A program made the position numbers and the translations under genes. Under the pieces are notes generated by a model that ran no database searches, was not told the DNA's origin, and saw only the letters and a list, made by a program, of their open reading frames with translations. A DNA stretch of 43,111 nucleotides from a virus (Duplodnaviria; Caudoviricetes), in IMG/VR virus record IMGVR_UViG_3300049982_000065, positions 1-43,111 of that record, one strand, 5' to 3'. The stretch's first letter is position 1. Every line of letters begins with the position of its first letter. This document shows positions 1-43,111 of the stretch, one piece after another.

Positions 1-127
1 AGTGGCTCCAGGCTGGTCGCGAGATCGCTCAGCTTCGCCAACCGGAGGGGTATTTCCTCCCCTTCAAGATAGTCCAATGTTGGACTATCTGCGTTGGGCG
101 CAGTTAGGCGGTTGCCCAACAGATCTC
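1..127. repeat. 127-bp terminal overlap identical to 42985-43111 (assembly circularisation)
   Basis: Exact match. 127 is a common assembler k-mer, and an ORF reads in frame across the join. Confidence 0.9.
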
Positions 128-1766
128 CCTGCGTGTAGGTCACGTTAGGCCGCTGGGCGACCATCCATGGACTGGCCGGATTGGGGGTACCGGCCAGGGC
201 GAACTCACGCGCTTCCGAATCGCTGGTCAGAATGCCCTGGACAATGGTCGCCTCATCACCGGCCACCACTACCCAGCGTCCCAATTCCTTGGGCTTACGC
301 ATGAACTTGATCTCGCTGACCAGCATTTTCCAGGTCTGCGCGGTATAGCGCGCCAACAATCGGATCATGAAATTCTCGCGCATATCCGCGTTACCATTGA
401 ACACGCGATTGGACATGCGCTGAGCGGCCAGGAGATCGAACATTCCAAACTGTCGGCCCGCAAAATCGAGCTTCTGAAATCCGATCAAAGCGGGCGAACG
501 CATCGACATCGTTCGGCGTTCCTCCGGTTCTGCCGTAGCACGGAGATCCATCCAATACTCCATGAGCAGGGTGGAGGTCATGTTCCATTCCTCGCGCACC
601 ACCAGCACCTTCGGCGCGCCCGCGGGCAACTCGTTGTCTGGCCCCATCGCCTGCTTCCGGCGGTCGATCTCCTCCCCGATCTCCACTCCGCAGTCATGAA
701 TGGCCTGCTCCGTAGTGAGGTAGCGGACGCCGGGCAACCCCTTGGCCCACGAGTGACTGGCCGCCTTCCAGTCCAGGACGATCACCGTCCACCCCCAGTG
801 GAGAGCCTGCATGATGATTACCTTCATCATCATCGACTTGCCTGCTCCGCTACCCGCGGAGAGCGCGATGTGCGGAGAGTCCGCCACCATCTCCGCTGCC
901 AGGAGTTCTCCGCCTGCCACCATCCCGAGGAACGGCCGGTACTCCATGGTGGCGTACAGGAGGCGCTCCACTTCTCCATACGTGATGCTCTTGGGAGGAG
1001 CAGGCGGAGCGGAGATGAGCAGGCGCGGCGCATTACCGGAGAGCTGCCACGCGGCCACCGTCTCCAGCATGCCGAGCTTCGCCGCTACCGCGCGCTCGAT
1101 CCGCGCCTTGCCCTTCTCGTCTGCTCCGGAGAAGCTGCCCGGTAGGAGGATCTCCACCGGGCCGGCACTGGGCTCCATGTAGTCGTACGGCACCGTGATC
1201 CATGAGCGTGCCTCCTCTGGCCGCCGTTCCACCTGGAGCAGGGGTGCCAGCGCGCGCGCGAGGGGGATCACTGTCTCCTGCTCCCACGCCCGGCGGCCGA
1301 CCACTACGCGCTCCCATCGAAGCCGGAGCACGTAGGGAGTCTCCTCCGTCAATCGCTCCTCCTCCCGGATCTCCCCCTCCGACTCTTCGCGCTGTTCCTT
1401 ACGGATCACGGGGAGACTGAGACCGTGCTCCCGGATGTGCCGCCGAAACAGGAGACTTCCGACCGGCAGGAGATGGGCGGCCAGGAGGAGCACGAAGAGC
1501 GTGTGTGCTCCGGAGAACCAGGCTGCCAGGAGAACCAGGAGCAGGAGCACTCCGTATACTCCGGAGATCCGGATGACGGAGCGTTTCCAGCCGGCCAGTC
1601 GCAACCATCGCGACGGGTATCCACTCGACGCGTCCCGCCAGAACGTGGCGTTGGTGCGCATCAGGTTATCCATGGGCCGGCCGACCAGGAAGCGCACGAT
1701 CCGTCCGCCCGGCAACCACGGATACTCGCCATGTAGCTCGATGTGCTCCATCCGACTAAGCTTCAT
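1..1766 (-). CDS. traB: TraB/FtsK-SpoIIIE-like DNA translocase, 5' part (continues across the junction to 42819; 643 aa total)
   Basis: Manual translation, absent from the ORF track: two N-terminal TM helices, Walker A SPHIALSAGSGAGKS, VIVLDWK, Walker B VLVVREE, GRQFGM..LLAAQR, RENFMIRLLARY, LGRWVVV. ATG at 1766 overlaps the upstream stop (ATGA). The frame is continuous with ORF 42819..43103. Confidence 0.85.
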   Translation of the reverse strand, partial: MKLSRMEHIELHGEYPWLPGGRIVRFLVGRPMDNLMRTNATFWRDASSGYPSRWLRLAGWKRSVIRISGVYGVLLLLVLLAAWFSGAHTLFVLLLAAHLLPVGSLLFRRHIREHGLSLPVIRKEQREESEGEIREEERLTEETPYVLRLRWERVVVGRRAWEQETVIPLARALAPLLQVERRPEEARSWITVPYDYMEPSAGPVEILLPGSFSGADEKGKARIERAVAAKLGMLETVAAWQLSGNAPRLLISAPPAPPKSITYGEVERLLYATMEYRPFLGMVAGGELLAAEMVADSPHIALSAGSGAGKSMMMKVIIMQALHWGWTVIVLDWKAASHSWAKGLPGVRYLTTEQAIHDCGVEIGEEIDRRKQAMGPDNELPAGAPKVLVVREEWNMTSTLLMEYWMDLRATAEPEERRTMSMRSPALIGFQKLDFAGRQFGMFDLLAAQRMSNRVFNGNADMRENFMIRLLARYTAQTWKMLVSEIKFMRKPKELGRWVVVAGDEATIVQGILTSDSEAREFALAGTPNPASPWMVAQRPNVTYTQGDLLGNRLTAPNADSPTLDYLEGEEIPLRLAKLSDLATSLEP

Positions 1767-2095
1767 CGTGGGACCTTCTCCCACGGGAAGAACCACGCCT
1801 CACGCTCGCCACTCATCCGGCAGTTGTACGAGTCGTGACCGGCAGAGAAGCCGGGCCAGTAGTCAAGCGTGACAATCGGCGGAGCGACATCGAATCCGGC
1901 ACGAAGGAACACGCGAGCACGTTCCTCTTCTTTCATCATGTAGTAACCGAACTGCATCCGCATGCAGCGAGCACAGCCACCACACGGCGGATAGTCGATC
2001 GACTGTCCGCCACAGTCGGACTCGTCGCCCGCAATCTGTATTTCCTCAAAGTTCTTCCACACCGCGTCTTTCCACTCCGGTGAGAGGTATCTCAT
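1763..2095 (-). CDS. Hypothetical protein (CxxCxxC motif)
   Basis: 110-aa ORF coupled by ATGA overlaps to both neighbours. Confidence 0.7.
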   Translation of the reverse strand: MRYLSPEWKDAVWKNFEEIQIAGDESDCGGQSIDYPPCGGCARCMRMQFGYYMMKEEERARVFLRAGFDVAPPIVTLDYWPGFSAGHDSYNCRMSGEREAWFFPWEKVPR

Positions 2096-2856
2096 CGCAC
2101 GCTCTCCAACCTGGCAGACTCACGCATCATGTCGATCAACTCAGGGCGAACCTTCTCGGTCGCCGCATCGATCACTGCGTTTGGATTGTCGCGGAGCGTC
2201 CGGTACACCTTGCTCAACCGGCCATACGTGGCGGGAGAGATGGCGGACTCCTGAACAATGGCGCTCTTGTCTGCGCCATTGATGAGCATTCTAACCGCTA
2301 CCACCTGATGAGGATCAACAGTGCCGCGCGGACGACGAGTGTGCTTTTCGGTCGTGTCGTGGATTGTGGTACCGATCGGAGCGGGAGAGACGGGCACCAG
2401 TTCCGTCGTGCTCCAGTCGCGATCGATGGCATCCAACTCCTGCTCGACAGGCTCAATTGCGGCCGCCCGGATCGCGAGCAGCGCGACTGTGGAGCCGAGC
2501 ATCAGACCATCGATCGCCAGTGGGCCGATCAGCGCGGAGAAGTCATCTTCGCCACCGAGGATCATCAGTGCGTGGATGTGCTGGTAACTGACTACGGCCG
2601 CCACAGCAGAGACCGGGCCGAGAAGGATGATCCGGCCAAACCAATCGATCATCTGCTCACGCCAGGCCACCCGTACAAAGACCTCCACCGCCACGAACAG
2701 TGCGGCCGGCCAGATGAATGCGAGCACTACGCGGATGATCAGGTTCACGGTACTAGAGACCAGCACGGTGTGGGTCTCGTTGCCGAGGACGGAGAGCACA
2801 GCGCCGAGCCCGAGCCCGAATCGTGCCCATCGTCGGCCACTGGCGTTGTTCTGCAT
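2092..2856 (-). CDS. DUF2637-like (SpdA/SpdB-type plasmid spread) membrane protein with C-terminal HTH-like region
   Basis: Four TM segments. Motif VSAVAAVVSYQHI..L....GE...ALIGPLAIDGLML resembles DUF2637. RBS GGAGG upstream. Confidence 0.75.
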   Translation of the reverse strand: MQNNASGRRWARFGLGLGAVLSVLGNETHTVLVSSTVNLIIRVVLAFIWPAALFVAVEVFVRVAWREQMIDWFGRIILLGPVSAVAAVVSYQHIHALMILGGEDDFSALIGPLAIDGLMLGSTVALLAIRAAAIEPVEQELDAIDRDWSTTELVPVSPAPIGTTIHDTTEKHTRRPRGTVDPHQVVAVRMLINGADKSAIVQESAISPATYGRLSKVYRTLRDNPNAVIDAATEKVRPELIDMMRESARLESVR

Positions 2857-2930
2857 GATCGCCTCCGAAGATTGGTGTCCACCCGAGTAGCGGTCTAGGT
2901 TCGGCTCATCCGCTCGGGTGGCTCAACTCC

Positions 2931-2958
2931 AGTCTACTTCAACCAGTCCAGTTGTCAA
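2931..2958 (-). promoter_or_regulatory. Phage promoter/operator box driving the spd-traB unit
   Basis: TTGACA-actggactggttgaag-TAGACT (16-nt spacer). Confidence 0.8.
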
Positions 2959-2971
2959 CTGCCATCTGGGT

Positions 2972-3010
2972 AAAAAGAAGCGGCCAGAGGGTTTGACCTC
3001 CTGGCCGCCT
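2972..3010 (-). terminator. Intrinsic terminator
   Basis: gcggccag...ctggccgc stem followed by TTCTTTTT on the - strand. Confidence 0.75.
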
Positions 3011-3042
3011 TGACGATCAGCTCCAGATACCTTCGCCTTGGG

Positions 3043-3234
3043 TCATGCTCTCCCCCCATCTGCATGATCGGCTGCGTACTCACTCGCATCGCGAAGATCG
3101 TCATACCGCTCGGTCCAGTCACAACCTTCCAACAGCCGGGAGTGCAGCACGCATGTGGCGATGATCTGACCATCCTCATCATCAACGGTCAACTCGACAT
3201 CTGCCGTGTCACCGATGAGCATCAACTTCGCCAT
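3043..3234 (-). CDS. Hypothetical protein (63 aa)
   Basis: MAKLMLIGD... starts just after the upstream stop. Confidence 0.6.
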   Translation of the reverse strand: MAKLMLIGDTADVELTVDDEDGQIIATCVLHSRLLEGCDWTERYDDLRDASEYAADHADGGRA

Positions 3235-3239
3235 GATGA

Positions 3240-3479
3240 TCAGTCCTTCGCCTGCGCGAGGAGAGCGTTGAAGAGGGGTGTGTTGAGCATCCACCACGCG
3301 GCATTCGTGCTAGTGATCGCACCAGCTTCGATGTGCCAAGTCGTTGCATCCATCAGGAGTCGCCGCGCGGCGTTGGCCGCGTACGCCGGAACCATCTGAT
3401 CGATACGGATCAGCTTGTCGCCGGACTCGCTGTAGTACTGCGTGGTCTGCTCGAAGTACGCCTTCGTCAAGTTCTGCAT
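3240..3479 (-). CDS. Hypothetical protein (79 aa)
   Basis: ORF track; co-directional and tightly packed. Confidence 0.65.
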   Translation of the reverse strand: MQNLTKAYFEQTTQYYSESGDKLIRIDQMVPAYAANAARRLLMDATTWHIEAGAITSTNAAWWMLNTPLFNALLAQAKD

Positions 3480-3488
3480 GGTTAGCCC

Positions 3489-3656
3489 CTAGCGCCGAGA
3501 GAACGGGAATGACGGCTTCTGCCGCTCGACGAAGGTGCAATCACTGTTCGGGTGAACCTTGCCCGTGGTGATCGAGCAGTCGCACTCGCTGCACTTGGGG
3601 CAGTGATCTCCAAGCTGAACGCCACACTTGCAGATGGTGCTTGCCGTCTTCGTCAT
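3489..3656 (-). CDS. Small Cys-rich protein (55 aa), probably leaderless
   Basis: Manual translation MTKTASTICKCGVQLGDHCPKCSECDCS...; ATG 6 nt after the -10 box. Confidence 0.6.
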   Translation of the reverse strand: MTKTASTICKCGVQLGDHCPKCSECDCSITTGKVHPNSDCTFVERQKPSFPFSRR

Positions 3657-3662
3657 GCCATC

Positions 3663-3690
3663 AGTCTACTCTAACCAGTCCAGTTGTCAA
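3663..3690 (-). promoter_or_regulatory. Phage promoter/operator box
   Basis: TTGACA-actggactggttagag-TAGACT. Confidence 0.8.
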
Positions 3691-3697
3691 CTGTTGA

Positions 3698-4288
3698 TCA
3701 AGGCTGAATGATTTGAGTGCCCGGCATGGCGAGCATCTTGTGAAAGAGGGACGATGGAGTCACATCCTGCGGAAGGCGGCCATCGTTGAAGACGTGGTAG
3801 CCGGCATCGGACATCGCCTGGTCGGCCAACTGCGAGCAGATCATGTGACCTGAGGATGTGACGAAGTTGTGGATGGGTCCGTTTCGGATGCGCATGTGCC
3901 AGCCGGTCAACGCCACGTAGTCCAGGAAGCTGTACGGAGTTCCGATATACTTTCGCGCGTGGTGCGCCACAGCATCACCGATCCATTGGTTGCCGAACCC
4001 ATCGATGCCATACGCTGGGCGGAGATAGATGTAGTCTTTCGTCCAGTGCTTCTGGCCAATCTCGATCTCTTCCGCGCCAGATGGCATAGCTTGCACGATG
4101 CTCGGTCCGTATGGTTCGAAGTAAGTTGGATCCGAATCGCCGGCTTGCGTCACCACGGCGACATGATGTGGATAGCCTGGCTGACCGAGGATTGTCTGAC
4201 CAAGGAGGATGAGAAGGTCCGCGGCGATGGGCCGGACGTGCCGGGCGAACATGATATCGCCCGGCCGGAGATCAGCGAGTGTGCTCAT
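3698..4288 (-). CDS. Permuted papain-like NlpC/P60 (YiiX/YebB-type) amidase
   Basis: LRPGDIMF, HHVAVV (His first), ARKYIGTPY, ICSQL (Cys later), VTPSSL. Confidence 0.8.
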   Translation of the reverse strand: MSTLADLRPGDIMFARHVRPIAADLLILLGQTILGQPGYPHHVAVVTQAGDSDPTYFEPYGPSIVQAMPSGAEEIEIGQKHWTKDYIYLRPAYGIDGFGNQWIGDAVAHHARKYIGTPYSFLDYVALTGWHMRIRNGPIHNFVTSSGHMICSQLADQAMSDAGYHVFNDGRLPQDVTPSSLFHKMLAMPGTQIIQP

Positions 4289-4583
4289 CGAGCACCTTTC
4301 TGATCTTTACCGCAGTGGGCGCATGAAAGCCTTCAGCTTCGGTTTCATCTGCCAGCACGTTGAACGCCTTGATCAGTGCGGCATACTTGCGACCCAACGA
4401 CTGTGCGACGTTCTCCCATCCGGCGGCACGCTGAATGGCTGCTTTGGTCGGGCCGAAGCTCTCCACCTGTTCGCGGAACTTGCGCAACGCGATCAGTTCT
4501 TTACGGAGTTCGACGTAATCTCCGACAGTTGCGTTGACCGGGATGATGGGTGACGCACAGATAGAATCGCCTAGCTCACTCAC
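4272..4583 (-). CDS. Hypothetical coiled-coil protein (103 aa)
   Basis: GTG start with AGGAGG RBS, within ORF 4272..4823. Confidence 0.6.
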   Translation of the reverse strand: MSELGDSICASPIIPVNATVGDYVELRKELIALRKFREQVESFGPTKAAIQRAAGWENVAQSLGRKYAALIKAFNVLADETEAEGFHAPTAVKIRKVLDEHTR

Positions 4584-4681
4584 GGTTGCCTCCTGACATC
4601 CTGTAACCAGCCCCTCCTCACTCAGCCCCCGATGGTGGAGCTGAAAGACACCATCAGGGAGGAGGGGCTGGAGGCAGGGGG

Positions 4682-5332
4682 TCAGGCGGAAGCGGTCGCT
4701 TGCGCCCGGTACCACGTGAGCGCGGCGGCACGCTGCTCCGCCGTGGGGTCGATGATCCCCCACGAGAATTGCGGCTTGCTCGGGGAGCGGCCGGCACGGA
4801 TCTGATCCATGTAGGCGTTCCACTCCTTCGTGGCATCCACCCAGGTCAGGCCCTTGCGGTAGCCAGGACCGGTCGGGCAGCGCTTGACCACACCGAGGAG
4901 CAGCGGGAATCCCGACTTCTCCAGGCCGGCCAGCTTGATCGTGACCGCCCTACCGTAGGCATACCACGACTCCCACGTGTACGGCGGTTCGAAGGTGTTG
5001 GTCTCCTCCGGGAACGTCTTGCCGTTTAGCTCGCGTTCCGGCGTGAAGACGGAGATGGTGCCGCCGTCCAGGACGGTGAGATTTGCGGAATAGAAATCCT
5101 GCTTCTGGTCCGGCTGGTTCGGGACCGGCTGGTCCTTCATCAGTTCGACCGGCTCCAGTACGACGAGTCGGTCGAGGATCTCATCCCATTTTGGCCCGCG
5201 GGGGCCGGAGCTTCCGCCGATCGAGTCGGGCGAGGCGAACGGATCGGCGTTGGGATCGAGCGCACGCTGTTTTGCGGCCGGTCCGGCGGAGCCGTTCGTC
5301 TGTGCGGCTGCGGCCGCATACGGGTCTGTCAC
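4682..5332 (-). CDS. Putative ssDNA-binding/recombination protein
   Basis: GTG start with an AGGA RBS. N-terminal DPFASP low-complexity tail then a beta-rich core; position near the exonuclease. Function is inferred. Confidence 0.45.
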   Translation of the reverse strand: MTDPYAAAAAQTNGSAGPAAKQRALDPNADPFASPDSIGGSSGPRGPKWDEILDRLVVLEPVELMKDQPVPNQPDQKQDFYSANLTVLDGGTISVFTPERELNGKTFPEETNTFEPPYTWESWYAYGRAVTIKLAGLEKSGFPLLLGVVKRCPTGPGYRKGLTWVDATKEWNAYMDQIRAGRSPSKPQFSWGIIDPTAEQRAAALTWYRAQATASA

Positions 5333-5371
5333 TGTGTTCCTGCTTTCCTGCGAGACGGTGAGACTGTTGGC

Positions 5372-5465
5372 GAAGTGGTGGCCGAGGGTTCCGCATCCCT
5401 CGCCCATGTTCGTCCTCACCTTGAGTGAGCGATGCATGGGGCAGCTCGAAAATCGCCACCACTCC
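5372..5465 (-). ncRNA. Structured RNA element (branched fold)
   Basis: Stems ggagtggtggc/gccaccacttc, cccatg/catggg, ctcac/gtgag, cgaggg/ccctcg. Confidence 0.45.
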
Positions 5466-5555
5466 GTGCACCATATCGTCGGTGCCCCGGTCCGCTCTAC
5501 ACCTAATCGTGCCCGACGTTCAACTGACGGGCGCAAGAAGGATTGACGGACTGCG

Positions 5556-5633
5556 TGTCCCCGGCCCGGCTCAAACGGGCAACTTTTCTCGGAGAGGGGT
5601 GACCATGACAGTCAAGCCACGAAAGGCGGGGAC
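5556..5633 (-). ncRNA. Degenerate tRNA-like element (78 nt)
   Basis: 7-bp acceptor GTCCCCG/CGGGGAC; T-arm GCCCG-TTTGAGC-CGGGC; TGAC/GTCA stem with 7-nt loop. Confidence 0.45.
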
Positions 5634-5799
5634 TCCATATTCAGTTGTGGTACACCGGCCCAACCGCCTACCGGCACGCGCACTCCGCGAAATTAGGAGC
5701 CATACAGCCTGATCGCCGCGTATTCGCCTACCGCTGTCTTACCTTCCAATTCGCTGGCGAGTCGTTCGGTTCTCAGTAGTGCGCTTCCCTTGCGTTTCG

Positions 5800-5873
5800 C
5801 ACTCCGTGCCAGAGTCGAACTGGCCCTAACCTACTCACCTTTCGGCTTTCGTTCCCGTACCGGGTACCGGAGC
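5800..5873 (-). ncRNA. Degenerate tRNA-like element (74 nt)
   Basis: Acceptor-like GCTCCG/CGGAGT; canonical T-arm GCCAG-TTCGACT-CTGGC; GAAA-tetraloop hairpin where an anticodon arm is expected. Confidence 0.5.
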
Positions 5874-5943
5874 GCCTCTTGAGAGCAGAGCCGGAGGTGT
5901 TCTAAAGAACTGCCTCTTCCGGAGTCTCGTGAGGATGTGGAGC

Positions 5944-12158: not shown

Positions 12159-12174
12159 GTCAGCTCCAGTTAGC

Positions 12175-12245
12175 TAGTCCAGATGTCAACTAGTACGCTA
12201 CGGGGCGGGCGACCAGTTGTCAACTGGACTAGTCTGGCGTACCGT
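12175..12245. promoter_or_regulatory. Divergent control region between the genome arms
   Basis: Palindrome CCAGTTGTCAACTGG (12213-12227) supplies a -35 on both strands. -10 TAGCGT (left, 12195-12200) and TACCGT (right, 12240-12245), both at 17-nt spacing. Additional CTGGACTAG boxes. Confidence 0.7.
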
Positions 12246-12305
12246 GGGCAGATAGCAGGCTACGCAGCATGCATCGGTAAAGAGGACATACGAGAGGAAC
12301 AGGAC

Positions 12306-12611
12306 ATGTCGTCCAAAAAGCAGTTCATGATCTCTGTCGATGAGGTCGACCGAGACCGGCTCGACGCACTGCGCATCGTCATGGGCGTGAGCCGTGCCGA
12401 GGCGGCCAGGCAGGCGCTCCAGCGCAAGGGACTCGCCGGTCTAGAGTCCGCCTACCACCCGCGACTGGCGCGGCTGTACGCGCTCGCCCAGCGGGCCGGG
12501 TGCCGGCGTTGGCCGGAATATGTCCGCCAGCTCACCGGCGACGGGAAGGGCCTCCAGCGGCTCCCCTCGCTGGAGGAGCTGGAGGACATGGAATCACATC
12601 TGACCGCTTGA
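12306..12611 (+). CDS. Ribbon-helix-helix (CopG/Arc-like) transcriptional regulator
   Basis: KQFMISV (beta strand)-DEVDRDRLDALRIVMG-VSRAEAARQAL pattern; GAGGA RBS; first gene right of the divergent promoter. Confidence 0.7.
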   Translation: MSSKKQFMISVDEVDRDRLDALRIVMGVSRAEAARQALQRKGLAGLESAYHPRLARLYALAQRAGCRRWPEYVRQLTGDGKGLQRLPSLEELEDMESHLTA

Positions 12612-14919: not shown

Positions 14920-15125
14920 CTGTGCGCAAGCTTGTGCACGATCAACTTCTTGTGCACAAGCTTGCGCTCACAAGATCAGCTCAGCTCTGCACAGCACTGC
15001 ACAACGCCTGACCTGCACTTGTGCACAGCACTGCACAGCTGTGCACAAGCATCCCAGACTGTTGTGCACAGCGCCCCGACCCCTAGGAGGGGCGCGTACA
15101 GCACAAGGGCACGTTCTGCACAGAG
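14920..15125. repeat. TGCACA/TGTGCACA repeat cluster, putative replication origin
   Basis: 8 TGCACA copies (14953, 14988, 14998, 15022, 15032, 15042, 15065, 15117) directly after the primase-helicase. Confidence 0.6.
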
Positions 15126-28995: not shown

Positions 28996-29736
28996 ATGGC
29001 AAAACAGGGTGGCATGGGTGATCACTTTTATGTCGGCTCGAATGCGCTCGGTGGGGACATTGGCGCACTGTCCAACGTGCATGGTGGGCCGAATCTCCAG
29101 GAAGTTACCGGGATCACGTTCAGTGCGCCGGAGCGGATCGGATTGCTGCGAGACGGTGGCGCCAGCGGTGCCGTGTGGTACAACCCGACACGTGCACATC
29201 TCGCGCTAAAGACGCTACCGACAACCGATCAGATCTGCACGTACGGCATCGGTCAGTTGGTCGGCAATCCTGCGCAATCTTGTATTGCCAAGCAGATCAA
29301 CTACGATGGCACTCGTGCGGCGGATGGCTCGATATCGTATGCGGTTGACTGGCAGTCGAGTGCCGGTACGGGCGCCGAGTGGGGACAACAGGCCACAGAT
29401 GGGATCCGCACCGATACCACCGCCACCTCCCCGGCCACCGGTTTCGACCGGACGGCAACATACGCGACCACCGCATTCGGCTTGTCGAGTTATCTGCACG
29501 TGTTCGCCTTCACCGGCACGAGCGTGACGTTCACCGTTCAGGACAGCGCAAATAACTCCGCTTTTACCACCGTGGCTGGAGCAGTACATACGGTGGTGAC
29601 CGGACCCACCGCAGAGCGAATCACGATCGGACTGACCGCCACGGTGCGCCGATACATCAGGGTCATCACGACTGGCACGTTCTCCAATGTTCAGTTCATG
29701 GTCAACGTGGTGCCGTATGAAATCGCGCAGCAGTGA
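28996..29736 (+). CDS. Tail tube-like protein 1 with C-terminal beta-sandwich extension
   Basis: Similar to 30189..30593 (MAKQGGMG, VTG....ERI.LL.D). Confidence 0.6.
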   Translation: MAKQGGMGDHFYVGSNALGGDIGALSNVHGGPNLQEVTGITFSAPERIGLLRDGGASGAVWYNPTRAHLALKTLPTTDQICTYGIGQLVGNPAQSCIAKQINYDGTRAADGSISYAVDWQSSAGTGAEWGQQATDGIRTDTTATSPATGFDRTATYATTAFGLSSYLHVFAFTGTSVTFTVQDSANNSAFTTVAGAVHTVVTGPTAERITIGLTATVRRYIRVITTGTFSNVQFMVNVVPYEIAQQ

Positions 29737-30188: not shown

Positions 30189-30593
30189 ATGGCTAAGCAG
30201 GGCGGCATGGGATATGCGGTCACCATGGACGACGGTGCCGCATCTCCTCAGGTCATCTCCAACGACGTGACCAACTTCCAGTTCTCCACTCCCCGCGGTG
30301 TGCAGGACGTGACCGGCGTGGACAAGAGCGCCATCGAGCGCATCCTCCTCCTGGCCGACTTCTCCGGCACACTGAACGGAGTACACAACAACGCAGCCAA
30401 CCGGCAGCACGCCGTCATGAAGACGATCAGCAGTACCTCCATTCTCCGTACGCTCACTCTGGCCGTGTCGAGCCAGACGTTGGCCAACGAGTGCGTGTTC
30501 TCCGACTACGCGCTCACCCGTGCGCAGGACGGGTCGCTCACCTACTCCACTCCGTTCGCACTCGGAGACGGCGCTGTCCCCACGTGGTCCTGA
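30189..30593 (+). CDS. Major tail tube protein
   Basis: 134 aa ending DGAVPTWS, immediately before the chaperone and tape measure. Confidence 0.65.
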   Translation: MAKQGGMGYAVTMDDGAASPQVISNDVTNFQFSTPRGVQDVTGVDKSAIERILLLADFSGTLNGVHNNAANRQHAVMKTISSTSILRTLTLAVSSQTLANECVFSDYALTRAQDGSLTYSTPFALGDGAVPTWS

Positions 30594-37971: not shown

Positions 37972-38262
37972 ATGGCTACACTCCCGGCAACACCGGCAAA
38001 AGGCAAGACCGAACTGAAGGTGAGGGCTGCGGCTTGGACCACGTTCGTCCTCTCCCTGACCGCCACCACGTTTCTCGGTACCACGGCAACTGACTACGTT
38101 CACGCCCTGCCGGACTGGCTGGAGGTACCTGCCTACAGCTTCCTACTCTCCGCGGGCACGTGGGTGGCCGGCTACGTCCGCAAGTCCTCCCCCGCCGATC
38201 TCAGCCCTTCCACCATCGACGCCGTGCGCGTGTGGCTGGAGAAGAGGATGCCCCGTGTCTAA
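37972..38262 (+). CDS. Holin
   Basis: ELKVRAAA, two TM segments, WVAGY; AGGAGG RBS. Confidence 0.65.
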   Translation: MATLPATPAKGKTELKVRAAAWTTFVLSLTATTFLGTTATDYVHALPDWLEVPAYSFLLSAGTWVAGYVRKSSPADLSPSTIDAVRVWLEKRMPRV

Positions 38263-39502
38263 GATCCGCGCGTTCTGTGCGAGCCTCCTCCTTCTGGCCG
38301 TCATCCTGGTCACGCCGGGCACGGCTATGGCCGACCCCACGCCGGCACCGAAACCTCTTCCCGTTCCGCATCTTCAATCGGTCAAACCGACCGGCGTAAG
38401 GGCTGTTAAAGGTCAGCCAAGCGTTGTTTCACCGGATAGTCTCACATCGTGCGGAGGCTGCCTGAAGTACGCCACGGGAGCACAGGCACTTGCTCCGGCG
38501 GACTATGCAGACGGTGCTAGCGTGCGAGCGACGGTGAGCAATCCCTTCCTGGCGAGCGCGATTCAGAACGACAGTCACTCGATTGTCGAGCTGGCAATTC
38601 AGGCAACCGACCCAATCAGCGGTCTACGCAACATCGTCGAAATCGGCACCCTGACCGATAATGGCGTAGTGAACGGTGACGGGCTCGCGCACCTGTTTGT
38701 GTTCTCGTGGGTCAACAACGTACCTGGCAGTTACAACGGTGGGAATGGCTACGCAAACGCTGTTGGCTGCTCCCCATGTGCTGGTGACTCAATCCAAGGT
38801 GACGTGGGTACAGCTAAAACGTTCGAATGGCAGCACATCGGTACAGCCTGGTGGGCGAAGTACAATGGCAATTATGTCGGTGCGTTCCCGGACTCGACGT
38901 GGAGCGGTAACTTCACCAAGGTTGAAGTCGTTCAGGCGTTTGGTGAAGTGGCAGTCGAGAACAACGAAAGCTGTTCGGACATGGGTAGCGGTGGTCACGC
39001 GGGTACTGCGTCGAGTACCAACATCGATCAATACACGCTGACCAACAGCACGGCATCCCCAACCTTCACGCAGGGCACCACCTCAACGCCGAGCATCTGG
39101 GCTTACACCCAACCGTCAAGCACCTACATTCGAGTCGGTGGCGAAGGCTACAACTCAGTTGGCGAGGCTATCGGCGTCAAGGGCTCGTGCGCTCCGGCCG
39201 CTGAGGGCACCCCTGCCGCGAGTTCGCTCCAGGTGTGGAAGGAGCAGTGCCCGGACGGCGCTGCGGTCACCGGCTGCAACTCGGCCTGGTCGCAGCTGTG
39301 GTCTGGTCAGACCATCAACGCCTGCCACGCGCTGACCTCTCCGGACAACACGTGGCGCCGGGTGTGGGGCAACTACCTGTCCTCGGGCAAGTCGTTCTAC
39401 GTGTACGCCGCCAGCACGTGTGGTGCGACGCGCCAGCTCGTGACCAACGCGAGCAAGCTCGTGACTGGGTGGGACATCCACGGGTGGGCGCGCGCCGCGT
39501 AA
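38255..39502 (+). CDS. Secreted neprosin-family glutamic peptidase with small C-terminal Cys-containing domain
   Basis: Signal peptide (..GTAMA-DP), HSIVELA, NIVEIG, HLFVFSW, WWAKYNGNYVGAFP, QAFGEV, DMGSG. Confidence 0.8.
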   Translation: MSKIRAFCASLLLLAVILVTPGTAMADPTPAPKPLPVPHLQSVKPTGVRAVKGQPSVVSPDSLTSCGGCLKYATGAQALAPADYADGASVRATVSNPFLASAIQNDSHSIVELAIQATDPISGLRNIVEIGTLTDNGVVNGDGLAHLFVFSWVNNVPGSYNGGNGYANAVGCSPCAGDSIQGDVGTAKTFEWQHIGTAWWAKYNGNYVGAFPDSTWSGNFTKVEVVQAFGEVAVENNESCSDMGSGGHAGTASSTNIDQYTLTNSTASPTFTQGTTSTPSIWAYTQPSSTYIRVGGEGYNSVGEAIGVKGSCAPAAEGTPAASSLQVWKEQCPDGAAVTGCNSAWSQLWSGQTINACHALTSPDNTWRRVWGNYLSSGKSFYVYAASTCGATRQLVTNASKLVTGWDIHGWARAA

Positions 39503-39572
39503 CCCGCAACACCCAAGGGTCGCGTAACCCGCAACATCCAAGGGTCGCGTAACCCGCAACACCCAAGGGTCG
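39496..39572. repeat. 3 x 25-bp tandem repeat CGCGTAACCCGCAACAYCCAAGGGT
   Basis: Units at 39496, 39521 and 39546, one mismatch. Confidence 0.95.
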
Positions 39573-39584
39573 TGTTGAAACGGC

Positions 39585-39619
39585 GAAGCGGCACCTCTCG
39601 AATGAGGGGTGCCGCTTTC
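39585..39619. terminator. Stem-loop between convergent arms (bidirectional terminator)
   Basis: AAGCGGCACCTCT / AGGGGTGCCGCTT. Confidence 0.75.
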
Positions 39620-39637
39620 ATCGGGCCGGCGGATTAC

Positions 39638-40026: not shown

Positions 40027-40269
40027 TTAGCGTCTGGACTGCCCTGATGCCAAATCTTTTCCAGGATTCCAGTTGGATCCTGGCGTGAAGCGTGGGATGA
40101 CCGGCTTACTGCTCAGATGAAAATGATTGCACTCAGTACAGAGGTAGTAGCTCTGCATGGGTGGGCTACCGTCTGGCGCGGGCTCCATCGAGCTACGTAG
40201 CAACGCGAGGCGCGCCATCCACTCCTGTTCGTGCCAATTCTTCCCGGAGCTGCACTTACGCGGATCCAC
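40027..40269 (-). CDS. Small putative Zn-binding protein
   Basis: C..GK...YLCTECNHFHLSS. Confidence 0.6.
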   Translation of the reverse strand: MDPRKCSSGKNWHEQEWMARLALLRSSMEPAPDGSPPMQSYYLCTECNHFHLSSKPVIPRFTPGSNWNPGKDLASGQSRR

Positions 40270-40849
40270 GGGATTCCCTAGGAAACCGGCCGAACGCGCC
40301 AGGCTCAGTCGCCACCTGAGCGGCGATCATCCGCGCGGCGGCGTACTCGTAAGCTTCCTGCCACGCCGTGGTGAATCGCGGCTCCCATCCTGAAAGCTCC
40401 TCCAGTACGCCGGCAAGAGACTCCCATACCGCCGTGTATTCCAGGATCGAGGCGCCGCGCACAGTGCCGTCCGGACGGCGGAAAGCAGCGTGTGAGCGAC
40501 CGAACGTGGCGAGGTGAGTATCGAGGATGCCCATCGTCTCGATCTTATTTGGGTCGTAGCTCTGCCCGAGCGCGATCAGGGCGGCCAGGAGGCGATCCCG
40601 CTGAACCTTGCCCGGCCCGTCCGATACCGGATCTGTTAGATCATCCGGGAACAACGGCGCAAGATCAGGTGCGTCCGCGAGCAGATCACGATAGAACGTG
40701 GCCACTACCTTCTGGTGTACGGCATCGTCCTGGCCGAGCAGTTGCAGAGACTGCCGTAGTAGATCGTTGACCGTCAACACTCTCCCCGTTCCGAAGCATG
40801 CCGGGCACGCCGGCCGTAGCTCCAGATTCTCCGTAGAAACATCGGACAT
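40256..40849 (-). CDS. Single-domain globin (flavohemoglobin-type globin fold) with N-terminal CxxCxGxG
   Basis: VATFY (B10 Tyr), APDLAPLFP (CD1 Phe), VQRDRL (E7 Gln), FGRSH (F8 His), EY.AV.ESL, AWQEAY; GAGGAGG RBS. Confidence 0.85.
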   Translation of the reverse strand: MSDVSTENLELRPACPACFGTGRVLTVNDLLRQSLQLLGQDDAVHQKVVATFYRDLLADAPDLAPLFPDDLTDPVSDGPGKVQRDRLLAALIALGQSYDPNKIETMGILDTHLATFGRSHAAFRRPDGTVRGASILEYTAVWESLAGVLEELSGWEPRFTTAWQEAYEYAAARMIAAQVATEPGAFGRFPRESRGSA

Positions 40850-40890
40850 TACTGCCTCCTCAGTCTTACGTTTGAAGATCATCATTATCC

Positions 40891-41010
40891 CTATCTGCGT
40901 CTCCGGCCACGGCGCATCTTCGGTAACCGCGGTCGATGCCCTCCCGTAAACCACGCCCATCCGACCAGCATGCTGGACAATACGACTAAGACGAACAGAA
41001 AGCGAATCAT
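40891..41010 (-). CDS. Single-TM peptide with Arg-rich tail (39 aa)
   Basis: MIRFLFVLVVLSSMLVGWAWF...RRGRRRR; ATGA overlap. Confidence 0.55.
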   Translation of the reverse strand: MIRFLFVLVVLSSMLVGWAWFTGGHRPRLPKMRRGRRRR

Positions 41011-41423
41011 CTACGACATCCCCGACAGTGCAAGCCGGGACACGCACCCTGATGATTGACCCGTGTGAGCAGCCAGTAGCCAACCCAACTGGCCACACTC
41101 ACAGCAACCAATGCACGCCAGTGGGCGGCCAGAAGGAACCCCCACGCGGCGATGTAGCCGAGGACTACCGTGGCTAGTCCCATCCACCATGGCCACTTTC
41201 GGCGCGGCTCTCTCAACGGAATGATCACCACCCACGCGCCGGTAGCCGAGGACCCCATCCTGCCGGTCCGTGCCACATCGCCACGGCGGACTGCCTTCGC
41301 CAGCCATGCGCGCAACTCATGCGGGTTGCGGTGATAGACCAACTGCTCTCCGGGCAGAAGTGGTCGATCTGCGAGGATCTCCGCGCGCGCCCGTTCCCAC
41401 GGCGTCAGCTCCTGGCCGCTCAT
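41007..41423 (-). CDS. Membrane protein with C-terminal HxxxCxxxHCxxC motif
   Basis: Two TM segments, HQGACPGLHCRGC. Confidence 0.65.
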   Translation of the reverse strand: MSGQELTPWERARAEILADRPLLPGEQLVYHRNPHELRAWLAKAVRRGDVARTGRMGSSATGAWVVIIPLREPRRKWPWWMGLATVVLGYIAAWGFLLAAHWRALVAVSVASWVGYWLLTRVNHQGACPGLHCRGCRR

Positions 41424-41617
41424 ATCGAACCACTACGAAGAACGCACTCTTCGCGCTGGCTCTTTAGATCCTGGGCAATCCACCATGCAGACGCAAACTG
41501 TATCCAAGTTAGCGGTCCGTCCAGGTTGTTAACGGTGATTTCCTCAAGCTGATCGTCAGTCCATTGCGCCGTCACGTGTGGAGTAGCGTTGATATCGGTT
41601 GAGGCGATGTAGTTCAT
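41420..41617 (-). CDS. Hypothetical protein
   Basis: 65 aa, ATGA overlaps. Confidence 0.6.
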   Translation of the reverse strand: MNYIASTDINATPHVTAQWTDDQLEEITVNNLDGPLTWIQFASAWWIAQDLKSQREECVLRSGSI

Positions 41618-42171
41618 CGCGCCTTCTCCTCTTTGAGCCAGATGTTCTCACGTTCGCGCGGGCTCATGCCGGCATACCATCCACCCCATGAACCACCGGG
41701 CGTTTCCGCAGTCATCACCCAGTTATGACACATATCGAAGACTGGACAACGCTTGCACATCTCTCTGACTTGCTCCGCTCTGCCCGCGGCTCGCTTTACA
41801 CCGATCATGGAGTCCATGAGTTTAAGTCCACGGGGAGTCCGGCACGTACCGGCCATCAGGTTCAGCCGAGGAGTACCGTGTCGCACGTTGTGCAGGTAGC
41901 CGGGCTCCTGCTTCAGCGGTTGCCCCTCCTTGAGTTTTATCGCTGCACGGCGTTCGGCGCGGCGCTTGGCATCACGCGCCCGGTTGCGGACCTGTTCTGC
42001 TCGCTGGTGGTCATACAACGCAGCACGTGCCCGCGGGCAGATGCATTTTGCCCTTGCGCTATCGCGACCTTTAGCCGAGTGCACCGTGTTGTGTAGTTGC
42101 GCCGGGCAGTCTTCGAGGATCATCCATGGTCCGCCGCCGGGGAGTGGCCCCGTACGTGAACGCCATGTCAT
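41614..42171 (-). CDS. whiB: WhiB-family transcription factor with extra N-terminal Cys/His domain
   Basis: C...CKRCPVFDMC...WGGWYAGMSPRER; N-terminal C.AQLH...CICPRAR. Confidence 0.8.
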   Translation of the reverse strand: MTWRSRTGPLPGGGPWMILEDCPAQLHNTVHSAKGRDSARAKCICPRARAALYDHQRAEQVRNRARDAKRRAERRAAIKLKEGQPLKQEPGYLHNVRHGTPRLNLMAGTCRTPRGLKLMDSMIGVKRAAGRAEQVREMCKRCPVFDMCHNWVMTAETPGGSWGGWYAGMSPRERENIWLKEEKAR

Positions 42172-42641
42172 CTCGCGATCCATATTGTCAACCCCCCGAT
42201 CGTTGCCAGAGTTCCCCATCGCATGATGGCGCGTGGGATCTTGTACCACAGTCCGAGGTTGTCCCGGAGCATCCGCTGGAATTGCGCGCTTCGCCCGTTG
42301 ACTCGACGCACGTTGTACGGTGGTTGCTTCGCCCGGTTGTACACCGGGCAGAGTAGCCATATCCACAGTGTCTCTTGAGCTTTGCGCCACCATCGGACGT
42401 GAGTCCACCACCGCGGGAGCCGATGGAACCGCGGCTCCAAGTCGTTCCAATCCTTCGGCTTAGCGGTAAATCGGATACTCCCGTTCAAGTGCTCCTCCTC
42501 GCGGAGAGCGCGGTTGTACCCCTCGCCCACGTAGCCGACGTGTCGGCCGATGATTGGCCATCCGAAGAATGCCCCCGGCTTGCGCGTGGTGAAGAAGTAG
42601 CAGCCGGCATCCTTCGGCCAACGCTTCCGTCGCTTAGCCAT
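42168..42641 (-). CDS. GIY-YIG-like nuclease domain with C-terminal membrane anchor
   Basis: GCYFF...GYVGE..N...R..EH...E....LCPVYN; hydrophobic C-terminus. Confidence 0.6.
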   Translation of the reverse strand: MAKRRKRWPKDAGCYFFTTRKPGAFFGWPIIGRHVGYVGEGYNRALREEEHLNGSIRFTAKPKDWNDLEPRFHRLPRWWTHVRWWRKAQETLWIWLLCPVYNRAKQPPYNVRRVNGRSAQFQRMLRDNLGLWYKIPRAIMRWGTLATIGGLTIWIAR

Positions 42642-42822
42642 GAGACTGTCGGCCCGGTAGAGACGCTCGATTGCGCCATGCCTCGCTACTCGCGCGAACT
42701 GCGTAGTAACGCCATCTCCCACCAAAGCGAGAACCGACAACTGCGTAACGCTCGCCAGTCGTCTTCGCGCGTGTACGCGCAAGCGCTATTGTATTGGCGT
42801 ATGCCAATATTGAGTACGTCAC
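42634..42822 (-). CDS. Small basic hypothetical protein
   Basis: 62 aa, GTGA overlap with the traB stop. Confidence 0.55.
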   Translation of the reverse strand: MTYSILAYANTIALARTRAKTTGERYAVVGSRFGGRWRYYAVRASSEAWRNRASLPGRQSHG

Positions 42823-43111
42823 TTACCCCTCCTGGCCGCAATCTGCGCATGACGTGTTCTAGTCCACATCTTAACTGCTTCAACATCGTATGTATAGCCT
42901 GAGAATTGCGTTCCACCCTGTACGGACGGGAAGCCGGAATCGGGATCTTTGGCGGCATGCTGAAGAATGTTGAGAGTGATTCCCAGTGGCTCCAGGCTGG
43001 TCGCGAGATCGCTCAGCTTCGCCAACCGGAGGGGTATTTCCTCCCCTTCAAGATAGTCCAATGTTGGACTATCTGCGTTGGGCGCAGTTAGGCGGTTGCC
43101 CAACAGATCTC
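42819..43111 (-). CDS. traB: TraB-like translocase, 3' end (C-terminal winged-helix DNA-binding domain)
   Basis: In frame with 1..1766 across the 127-bp overlap; GITLNILQHAAKDPDSGFP...YTYDVEAVKMW. Confidence 0.8.
   Translation of the reverse strand, partial: DLLGNRLTAPNADSPTLDYLEGEEIPLRLAKLSDLATSLEPLGITLNILQHAAKDPDSGFPSVQGGTQFSGYTYDVEAVKMWTRTRHAQIAARRGK

Follow-up and report, generated by a model that had tools for sequence, protein, structure and literature searches.

Background

TraB and Spd proteins together are reported to spread plasmids within the mycelium, and Thoma et al. 2015 raised the possibility that phage DNA is helped to spread by the SpdB2 homologues that certain actinophages carry (PMC4447253). 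The plasmid-phage pZL12 is described as needing its tra gene and two neighbouring genes for transfer (cited in PMC3583192; PMC4487206), and its record carries an FtsK-like gene, parA, parB and an integrase gene. FtsK-like genes have also been described in the phages P1312 (PMC4569894), Mandalore and Naboo (10.1101/2024.02.16.580700). The particle-free spread of phage DNA is thus, as a general idea, already in print, through pZL12 and Thoma 2015. Here we analyse the IMG/VR virus record IMGVR_UViG_3300049982_000065, the sequence of a tailed soil phage, 43,111 nucleotides long, that we call the window, in which an FtsK/TcpA-fold ATPase gene stands in one operon with a gene for a DUF2637-like membrane protein, a pair that may carry phage DNA from one hyphal compartment to the next. 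What is new here is that the pump belongs to a separate lineage, that its context is lytic-looking and that a heptamer, CTGGCCG, is enriched genome-wide.

The ATPase gene, its join and its fold

The ATPase gene lies on the minus strand and crosses the ends of the record. Its reading frame starts at the ATG at 1766, leaves position 1 still in frame (1-1766, residues 1-588 of 643) and resumes at the other end of the window, where the 3' part (42819-42984) continues as far as the stop, at 42819. One part has 588 residues and the other 96; with a 41-residue overlap between them they make up 643 residues, just as the preliminary description had it for an open reading frame (ORF) split by the assembly join. 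IMG/VR classes the record as having terminal repeats, and its first 127 nucleotides are identical to its last 127 (the assembly overlap, 42985-43111), so the genome is a circle of 42,984 bp. The join was accepted because full-length relatives about 87% identical exist, P0005 (645 residues) and P0006 (633 residues) being 87% and 86% identical to the N-terminal part, and P0005 matching the C-terminal part at 82 of 96 residues. Moreover, a public contig of 43,014 nucleotides, opened at another place, spans the join without differences (its letters 1-931 correspond to window 931-1, its letters 805-5916 to window 43111-38000); this contig may be the source data.

Sequence and model agree on an N-terminal part made of two transmembrane (TM) helices, an alpha domain and a RecA-like motor. 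The two TM helices that had been proposed were recovered both as hydrophobic segments and as helices 59-84 and 88-114 of the AlphaFold model (mean predicted local distance difference test score of 82 for the N-terminal part in the window and 88 for full-length P0005), and the motifs AGSGAGKS, VVREE and AAQR were all present and conserved. The Walker A Lys and Ser and the Walker B Glu are invariant in 115/115 homologues and the sensor Gln is kept in 109/115, while a Gly-Arg pair is likewise invariant, its Arg being what we take to be the arginine finger. Foldseek placed TcpA of pCW3 first (E 1.9e-15), followed by FtsK (2.1e-13), EccC (1.5e-9) and the HerA and VirB4 proteins (3e-7 to 1e-5). In a wide structure search the FtsK clade was again on top, with TcpA, EccC and FtsK between Z 26.5 and 20 (TcpA Z 26.5, root-mean-square deviation 8.6 over 332 aligned residues; FtsK Z 23.2, 3.2 over 254), and VirB4 (Z 17.8), HerA (17.2), TrwB (14.6) and B204 (13.4) came lower. 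The motor groups with FtsK and TcpA, and the grouping with HerA, VirB4 or packaging ATPases, which the preliminary description had named as speaking against its proposal, was not seen. At the level of Pfam the window ATPase matches DUF87 (26 bits) and leaves PF01580 unmatched; for PF01580, pNPL.7c scores above the cut-off, pJV1 TraB under it, and pZL12.71c gives no match. A role of the ATPase in packaging was ruled out, because the phage already encodes a terminase of its own.

The 3' part of the gene encodes, at the C-terminus, a winged helix-turn-helix (wHTH), which profiles and model indicate to be terminase-small-subunit/MerR-like. In the P0005 model the final 70 residues fold into a helix-helix-wing-helix unit, and a profile built from 29 members finds terminase small subunits (E 3e-5 to 4e-4), which we take to be lambda gpNu1, with weak leads to HTH_17 and MerR. 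The predicted C-terminal wHTH is therefore present, but its type is not that of pIJ101 Tra and pJV1 TraB, whose tails match MarR_2 and PaaX. Taken as a whole, the protein is predicted to be a membrane-anchored FtsK/TcpA-fold pump for double-stranded DNA.

The operon and its promoter

Two further genes precede the ATPase gene on the minus strand, one of 110 codons (1763-2095) and one of 254 codons for the DUF2637-like membrane protein (2092-2856). ATGA overlaps at 2092-2095 and at 1763-1766 link the three genes, which bears out the translational coupling through one small ORF that had been proposed. The middle ORF is Cys-rich and has no TM segment; it is not conserved, no homologue being present among the viral and metagenome loci searched, and is probably a variable insertion in the operon. 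The outermost gene had been called a DUF2637-like gene with four TM segments. Its kinship to DUF2637 (PF10935) holds at a sub-threshold level, with 20.1 bits against a cut-off of 22.8, and homologues of the same cluster (L007, L016, L017, L021 and L023) exceed that cut-off; hydropathy, however, gives only three clear TM segments, with a fourth possible, and a helix-turn-helix-like region lies at the C-terminus. A complex prediction for the N-terminal part of the ATPase with the TM part of this protein scored 0.00 and is not used as evidence.

Ahead of the operon, at 2931-2958 on the minus strand, stands a promoter-like motif consisting of TTGACA, 16 nucleotides and TAGACT, with conserved letters in the spacer. 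The genome holds 10 matches to this motif where 0.13 would be expected, about 9 copies being oriented, and the motif also precedes the operon in several relatives; the phage-type promoter of the preliminary description is well founded in this respect. Divergent copies of the promoter with a palindromic CCAGTTGACAACTGG core were also seen ahead of a ribbon-helix-helix-like (RHH-like) gene at 12160-12611, a candidate regulator of the promoter family.

Comparison with TraB/Spd and other translocases

The phage module resembles the Tra or TraB and Spd systems with which Streptomyces plasmids and AICEs transfer double-stranded DNA (pSVH1, pIJ101, pSG5 and pJV1) in the N-terminal TM helices, FtsK-fold motor and C-terminal wHTH of its ATPase, in the operon that couples the ATPase gene with one for a multi-TM membrane protein, and in having ATPase relatives on actinomycete plasmids. 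It differs from them in that its wHTH is terminase-small-subunit/MerR-like and its partner DUF2637-like, and in that neither a clustered clt nor a GntR-type traR was found. The identification of the ATPase as TraB did not hold when the family profile was compared with pIJ101 Tra, pSG5 TraB, pJV1 TraB, SLP2 FtsK and pZL12.71c, since E was 1.8 for pIJ101 Tra and 6.2 for pSG5 TraB and the remaining three gave no match. The same applies to the Spd-like identity of the partner, whose profile reached E 0.29 at best (SLP2) against SpdB/SpdB2; for pSG5 and pJV1 the ORFs used, hypothetical in their records, are presumably spdB2. By analogy, the module probably works like a TraB/Spd spreading system, yet it lies outside the tested TraB and SpdB2 families.

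The ATPases pRL2-11, pFRL6 'Tra', pNPL.7c and that of pPR2 are homologous to the phage protein over most of its length, most of them with the same C-terminal domain and frequently with DUF2637 neighbours. They differ in being plasmid-borne, some within TcpC/VirB4 clusters, in being 31-35% identical and in being known from annotation alone. In the case of TcpA from the Clostridium perfringens plasmid pCW3 (PDB 6o1w/6o1x), which is the best profile match (E 8e-7) as well as the best structural match, the likeness extends over the alpha and beta domains; but identity is 14-17%, TcpA serves a type IV secretion system (T4SS) whose genes the phage lacks, and the phage protein has a C-terminal wHTH. 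Among the 65 ORFs scanned there was no family match to VirB4, TcpC or a relaxase beyond weak P-loop matches of the ATPase itself. The comparison with pZL12 (phage ZL12, NC_013420) sets a genome of 90 kb with parA, parB and an integrase against one of 43 kb without these, and pZL12.71c and gp63 of the Thermobifida phage P1312 (P1312_063) match each other (E 3e-27) and not this ATPase family.

Distribution across phages and plasmids

A single-sequence query found no relative in IMG/VR and an alignment query found 24; in 14 of these loci, virion or lysis-module genes in common with the window lie no more than 10 kb away. Many homologues are carried by contigs of 39-47 kb. A DUF2637-like gene stands upstream in 21/22 distinct close-clade loci having at least 1.1 kb of upstream sequence, most of these loci having been part of the profile used and the metagenome loci having first been found with a smaller profile; the sole miss, L128, does show a DUF2637-like gene in another locus comparison. 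The module is thus a fixed trait of the clade and not a passive plasmid cointegrate, in keeping with what the preliminary description had argued from the promoter alone: many phage contigs preserve both the synteny and the promoter motif, and GC content is uniform along the window. Mis-assembly could be suspected from a gene that crosses the contig ends and from a sequence present in only one run, but the public contig runs through the join and full-length close homologues exist. An artefact of either kind, mis-assembly or cointegrate, is largely refuted through the clade-wide synteny and seems to us hardly credible.

A survey of linkage, which had been suggested for actinophages, showed that the pairing of this type of ATPase gene with a DUF2637-like gene recurs in the phage clade and on actinomycete plasmids. 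The same two gene types are found on pPR2 (15.5 kb), pNPL1 (24.6 kb) and pFRL6, with TcpC/VirB4 genes coming after them on pFRL6 and in L040-L045, and the pair is also present on small plasmids without another annotated transfer ATPase. The family profile matches proteins of Pseudonocardia p1, pFRL6, pGBA1N (pRL2-11), pPR2 and pNPL1 with E 2e-111 to 4e-66. Plasmid records with homologues are from Streptomyces in 51/58 cases, and all 16 genome loci bearing a homologue (16/16) are from Streptomyces, Streptosporangium or Micromonospora; among 301 genomes around Micromonospora, 14 have a homologue, at no more than 335 bits and so far under the close clade. The DUF2637-like protein gave no tblastn match in cultured phages. 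In a quick tree, from which pNPL.7c and L030b were left out for want of a matched Walker A, the window falls in a clade of environmental sequences (Shimodaira-Hasegawa approximate likelihood ratio test, SH-aLRT, 99), and the Tra references stand on long branches apart from the ATPase family, their joins being unreliable given a long-branch warning.

The family also shows variation in its arrangement. A second integrase-free phage clade, L024-L027 (G019-G022), carries the same ATPase family; there the pump gene faces against its neighbours, the DUF2637-like gene is convergent and downstream, and an inverted motif, CTTAGTAA, is repeated. In the Streptomyces elements L031-L038 and L040-L045 the full-length ATPase stands next to one or two further paralogues that consist of the motor only (about 270 residues, with a degenerate Walker A). 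In Dagobah and L029 the family is represented solely by a short form, about 310 residues long. The pPR2 homologue (L003:8514-10330) is annotated as two consecutive coding sequences that jointly cover the family profile.

A dispersed candidate signal

No clustered clt repeat follows the ATPase gene, where the next ORF overlaps the stop codon; as a control of the count, the published clt repeat of pJV1 was recovered, clustered after pJV1 traB. Instead, the octamer CCTGGCCG is dispersed over the window between 191 and 42838 in 43 copies (19 plus, 24 minus), and its core CTGGCCG in 71. Picked after the fact from all octamers, CCTGGCCG is the most over-represented one of the genome, with 43 copies against 3.07 expected from dinucleotide shuffles (largest 10), and with 41 copies in genes against 6.9 expected from 200 synonymous shuffles (largest 18). 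Its spacing is near random (mean 1,000, standard deviation 971). For CTGGCCG the enrichment is 1.9- to 8.1-fold (median 3.85) over 24 close-clade sets, which are related and so not independent; it is 0- to 2.8-fold over 45 other sets, drawn from phages, plasmids and genomes, and 0.7- to 2.3-fold over five further controls, among them stretches of 200 kb from each of two actinomycete chromosomes. CTGGCCG is the top heptamer in 9/24 close sets and in 0/26 others, where its best rank is 27. The genome-wide enrichment of CCTGGCCG or CTGGCCG is peculiar to this phage clade; it was also observed in G002, G003, G007, G008, L096 and L106, and G022 has 0 copies. Three other origins of the motif were rejected: a protein-level bias, by 19 sense and 22 antisense placements; an effect of the palindrome YGGCCR, since TGGCCA stands at 1.2 and CGGCCG at 0.8 in the window; and transcription-oriented stoperators, since orientation is lacking.

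From its sequence pattern, the dispersed and asymmetric CCTGGCCG/CTGGCCG is a candidate loading tag for the translocase, its rival being a Chi-like signal of the host. Chi sites are reported to accumulate in phages without a recombination module of their own (PMC12315714), and the unpolarised motif with its near-random spacing would suit such a signal. In one rival reading the pump would be confined to one compartment, where it would complete DNA entry, tether or spread replicating genomes at the membrane, or clear competitor DNA together with the membrane-tailed GIY-YIG-like protein encoded nearby, and CTGGCCG would be unrelated to it. The position of the operon in the early block is consistent with this, as is the FtsK-like gene of P1312, which has been read as a segregation function (PMC4569894). 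The gene pair, however, is also carried by small plasmids that are not phages and have no need of an entry step, and the motif is only 1.4- and 1.9-fold enriched in the sampled Micromonospora and Streptosporangium chromosomes, which are perhaps not those of the host; we consider a role confined to one compartment rather improbable.

Two clustered repeats were also found. A cluster of about ten TGTGCACA/CTGCACAG repeats at 14951-15123, after the primase-helicase gene, is likely the replication origin, with a clt-like role possible. Three direct repeats of 25 bp (39496-39572) lie at the meeting point of the convergent late and early blocks of genes and are followed by a strong hairpin at about 39580-39625. 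Either cluster, at 39496 or at 14951, or the dispersed octamer, could replace clt.

Lifestyle of the phage

The virion and putative lysis module extends over 17842-39502 on the plus strand, as assigned from family hits, weak hits, homology and position. Terminase, portal, ClpP-type protease and major capsid genes give clear family hits, as do those for helicase, exonuclease, methyltransferase, primase-helicase, RusA and WhiB; the tail genes were assigned via weak hits, homology or position. Of the full virion and lysis gene set that had been claimed, the virion part stands, while the lysis genes are called from position and hydrophobicity only, without a family hit. The large tail protein has relatives in the Streptomyces phages phiSASD1, Dubu and Dagobah (27-31%), and the helicase is nearest to those of Nocardia phage NBR1 and of mycobacteriophages such as Harvey (31-33%), the latter taken to be lytic.

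Integrase, resolvase, ParA and ParB families (PF00589, PF00239, PF13614, PF02195) had 0 matches in the complete record. Tyrosine integrases occur in 0/9 of the nearest records, of which only two are at least 90% complete, and in 8/15 of the more distant ones, two of those 15 being proviruses; serine recombinases were found in 0/12 records and ParA in 0/23 related ones. On this sequence evidence the phage is probably lytic, a maintenance system outside the known families being still possible.

The stronger claim of the preliminary description, movement of the DNA between mycelia, would have the phage kept without integration, as a carrier-state or plasmid prophage, and passed on from mycelium to mycelium by conjugation, as with pZL12. 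The precedent of pZL12 itself, the integrases of the more distant viral records, a partly palindromic promoter spacer that may be an operator, and the RHH-like gene behind the divergent promoter copies are all compatible with such a state. A conjugating prophage is nevertheless made doubtful by the missing integrase, resolvase, ParA and ParB, the last of these points extending to the related records in the case of ParA; no clustered clt follows the pump gene, and the translocase of pZL12 is of another class. We therefore regard carrier-state conjugation as unlikely.

Proposed mechanism

Starting from what can be read directly, that is the gene and its join, the operon layout, the conserved catalytic residues, the clade-wide linkage, the plasmid relatives and the enriched heptamer, and arguing by analogy beyond these, we give about an even chance to the reading that the pump and its partner drive phage DNA across the cross-walls of the hyphae, and so into adjoining compartments within one mycelium, during infection. 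The operon would be expressed early in infection, as the repeated promoter motif suggests, and the ATPase and its DUF2637-like partner would sit in the membrane, where the ATPase may form a hexamer and the partner may have a function in the same process. In a host that is presumably filamentous, the C-terminal wHTH would load at dispersed CTGGCCG sites in place of a clustered clt, and replicated genome copies would then be pumped into adjacent compartments without particles, provided that the pump works in that direction. Cross-wall spread would pay off because mature mycelium is reported to resist infection from outside (PMC10117723). Spread within an infection also fits better than prophage conjugation, because integrase, resolvase and ParA/ParB are lacking.

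Several findings weigh against cross-wall pumping. The family profile of the ATPase misses all five reference Tra proteins, 0/4 SpdB/SpdB2 references have a DUF2637 match, and the nearest solved fold, TcpA, is that of a T4SS coupling protein; the relatives on pFRL6 and in L040-L045 sit beside TcpC/VirB4 genes, which are absent from the phage. Among cultured phages only Dagobah gave a match, a motor-only homologue of 309 residues with 28% identity, and only 2/9 of the nearest records are at least 90% complete. As for the motif, it is not strand-polarised, and its enrichment ranges overlap at their low end (1.9-2.8). A helicase search for pump-less members of the clade returned only a pump-bearing record, so that the motif was not separable from the pump or the lineage, and a loading tag and a Chi-like site both fit. 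The host can be placed only as a probable actinomycete, from WhiB and from the relatives. A literature search, with most subscription papers and supplements outside its scope, found no study of the ATPase subfamily or of the motif.

Neighbouring genes and other features

Beyond the ATPase gene the minus strand continues with a 62-codon ORF (42634-42822) that overlaps the ATPase stop (GTGA), and with a gene for a conserved GIY-YIG-like protein with a hydrophobic C-terminus (42168-42641), which adjoins the ATPase gene in two phage clades. The GIY-YIG call is a weak Pfam one (2/10 members, best E 0.0019, no PDB match). In the same gene run follow a WhiB-family regulator, called from a family hit (41614-42018, minus), and a small conserved membrane protein (41007-41423, minus), whose cluster is common to close relatives. 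A phage-encoded globin-domain protein (40256-40960, minus; Pfam Globin E 7e-6, above the cut-off) ends the early gene run.

The whiB gene, downstream of the pump in the same orientation and found in close relatives too (cluster 20), allows for a different role, in which the pump would work at sporulation septa, sending phage DNA into prespores so that the phage spreads inside spores, with WhiB tuning development. Proteins of the FtsK/SpoIIIE type are reported to act at septa (Ghinet 2011, PMC3218068), and sporulation at the plaque edge is reported to contain infections (PMC10117723). WhiB is, however, common in actinophages generally (24% of genomes), and the DUF2637 linkage is shared with plasmids, not with sporulation genes; transport into prespores is thus also an unlikely explanation.

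In the late block, a 415-residue protein (38255-39502, plus) has a signal-peptide-like N-terminus, and follows the holin-like genes; its one hit, to CDGP, is weak. Lysis cassettes do not usually close with a gene for a secreted, enzyme-like product. Two related tail-tube-like genes (28996-29736 and 30189-30593) have near-identical N-termini, and the tape-measure-like gene is short (666 residues). CTGCAG is absent from the whole window (0 copies), and CTCGAG (1), GAGCTC (2) and CAGCTG (3) are few, which suggests avoidance of restriction sites and may be a clue to the host.

Implications

This locus bears on how phages deal with bacteria that are multicellular and divided into compartments, and it adds a second lineage of FtsK proteins, apparently unstudied, in small phages without sign of lysogeny. 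Since a candidate DNA site can be named, the idea is accessible to a simple binding assay without phage culture. The broadest form of the idea, which we put forward only tentatively and with considerable doubt, is that lytic soil actinophages of a widespread clade have converted a DNA pump of the plasmid type into a motor for spreading infection, their genomes being tagged throughout with CTGGCCG and read by a terminase-like wHTH, so that the mycelium would be invaded compartment by compartment without particles or receptors. If there is such a route through the cross-walls, plaques, burst size and developmental defence would have to be interpreted differently.

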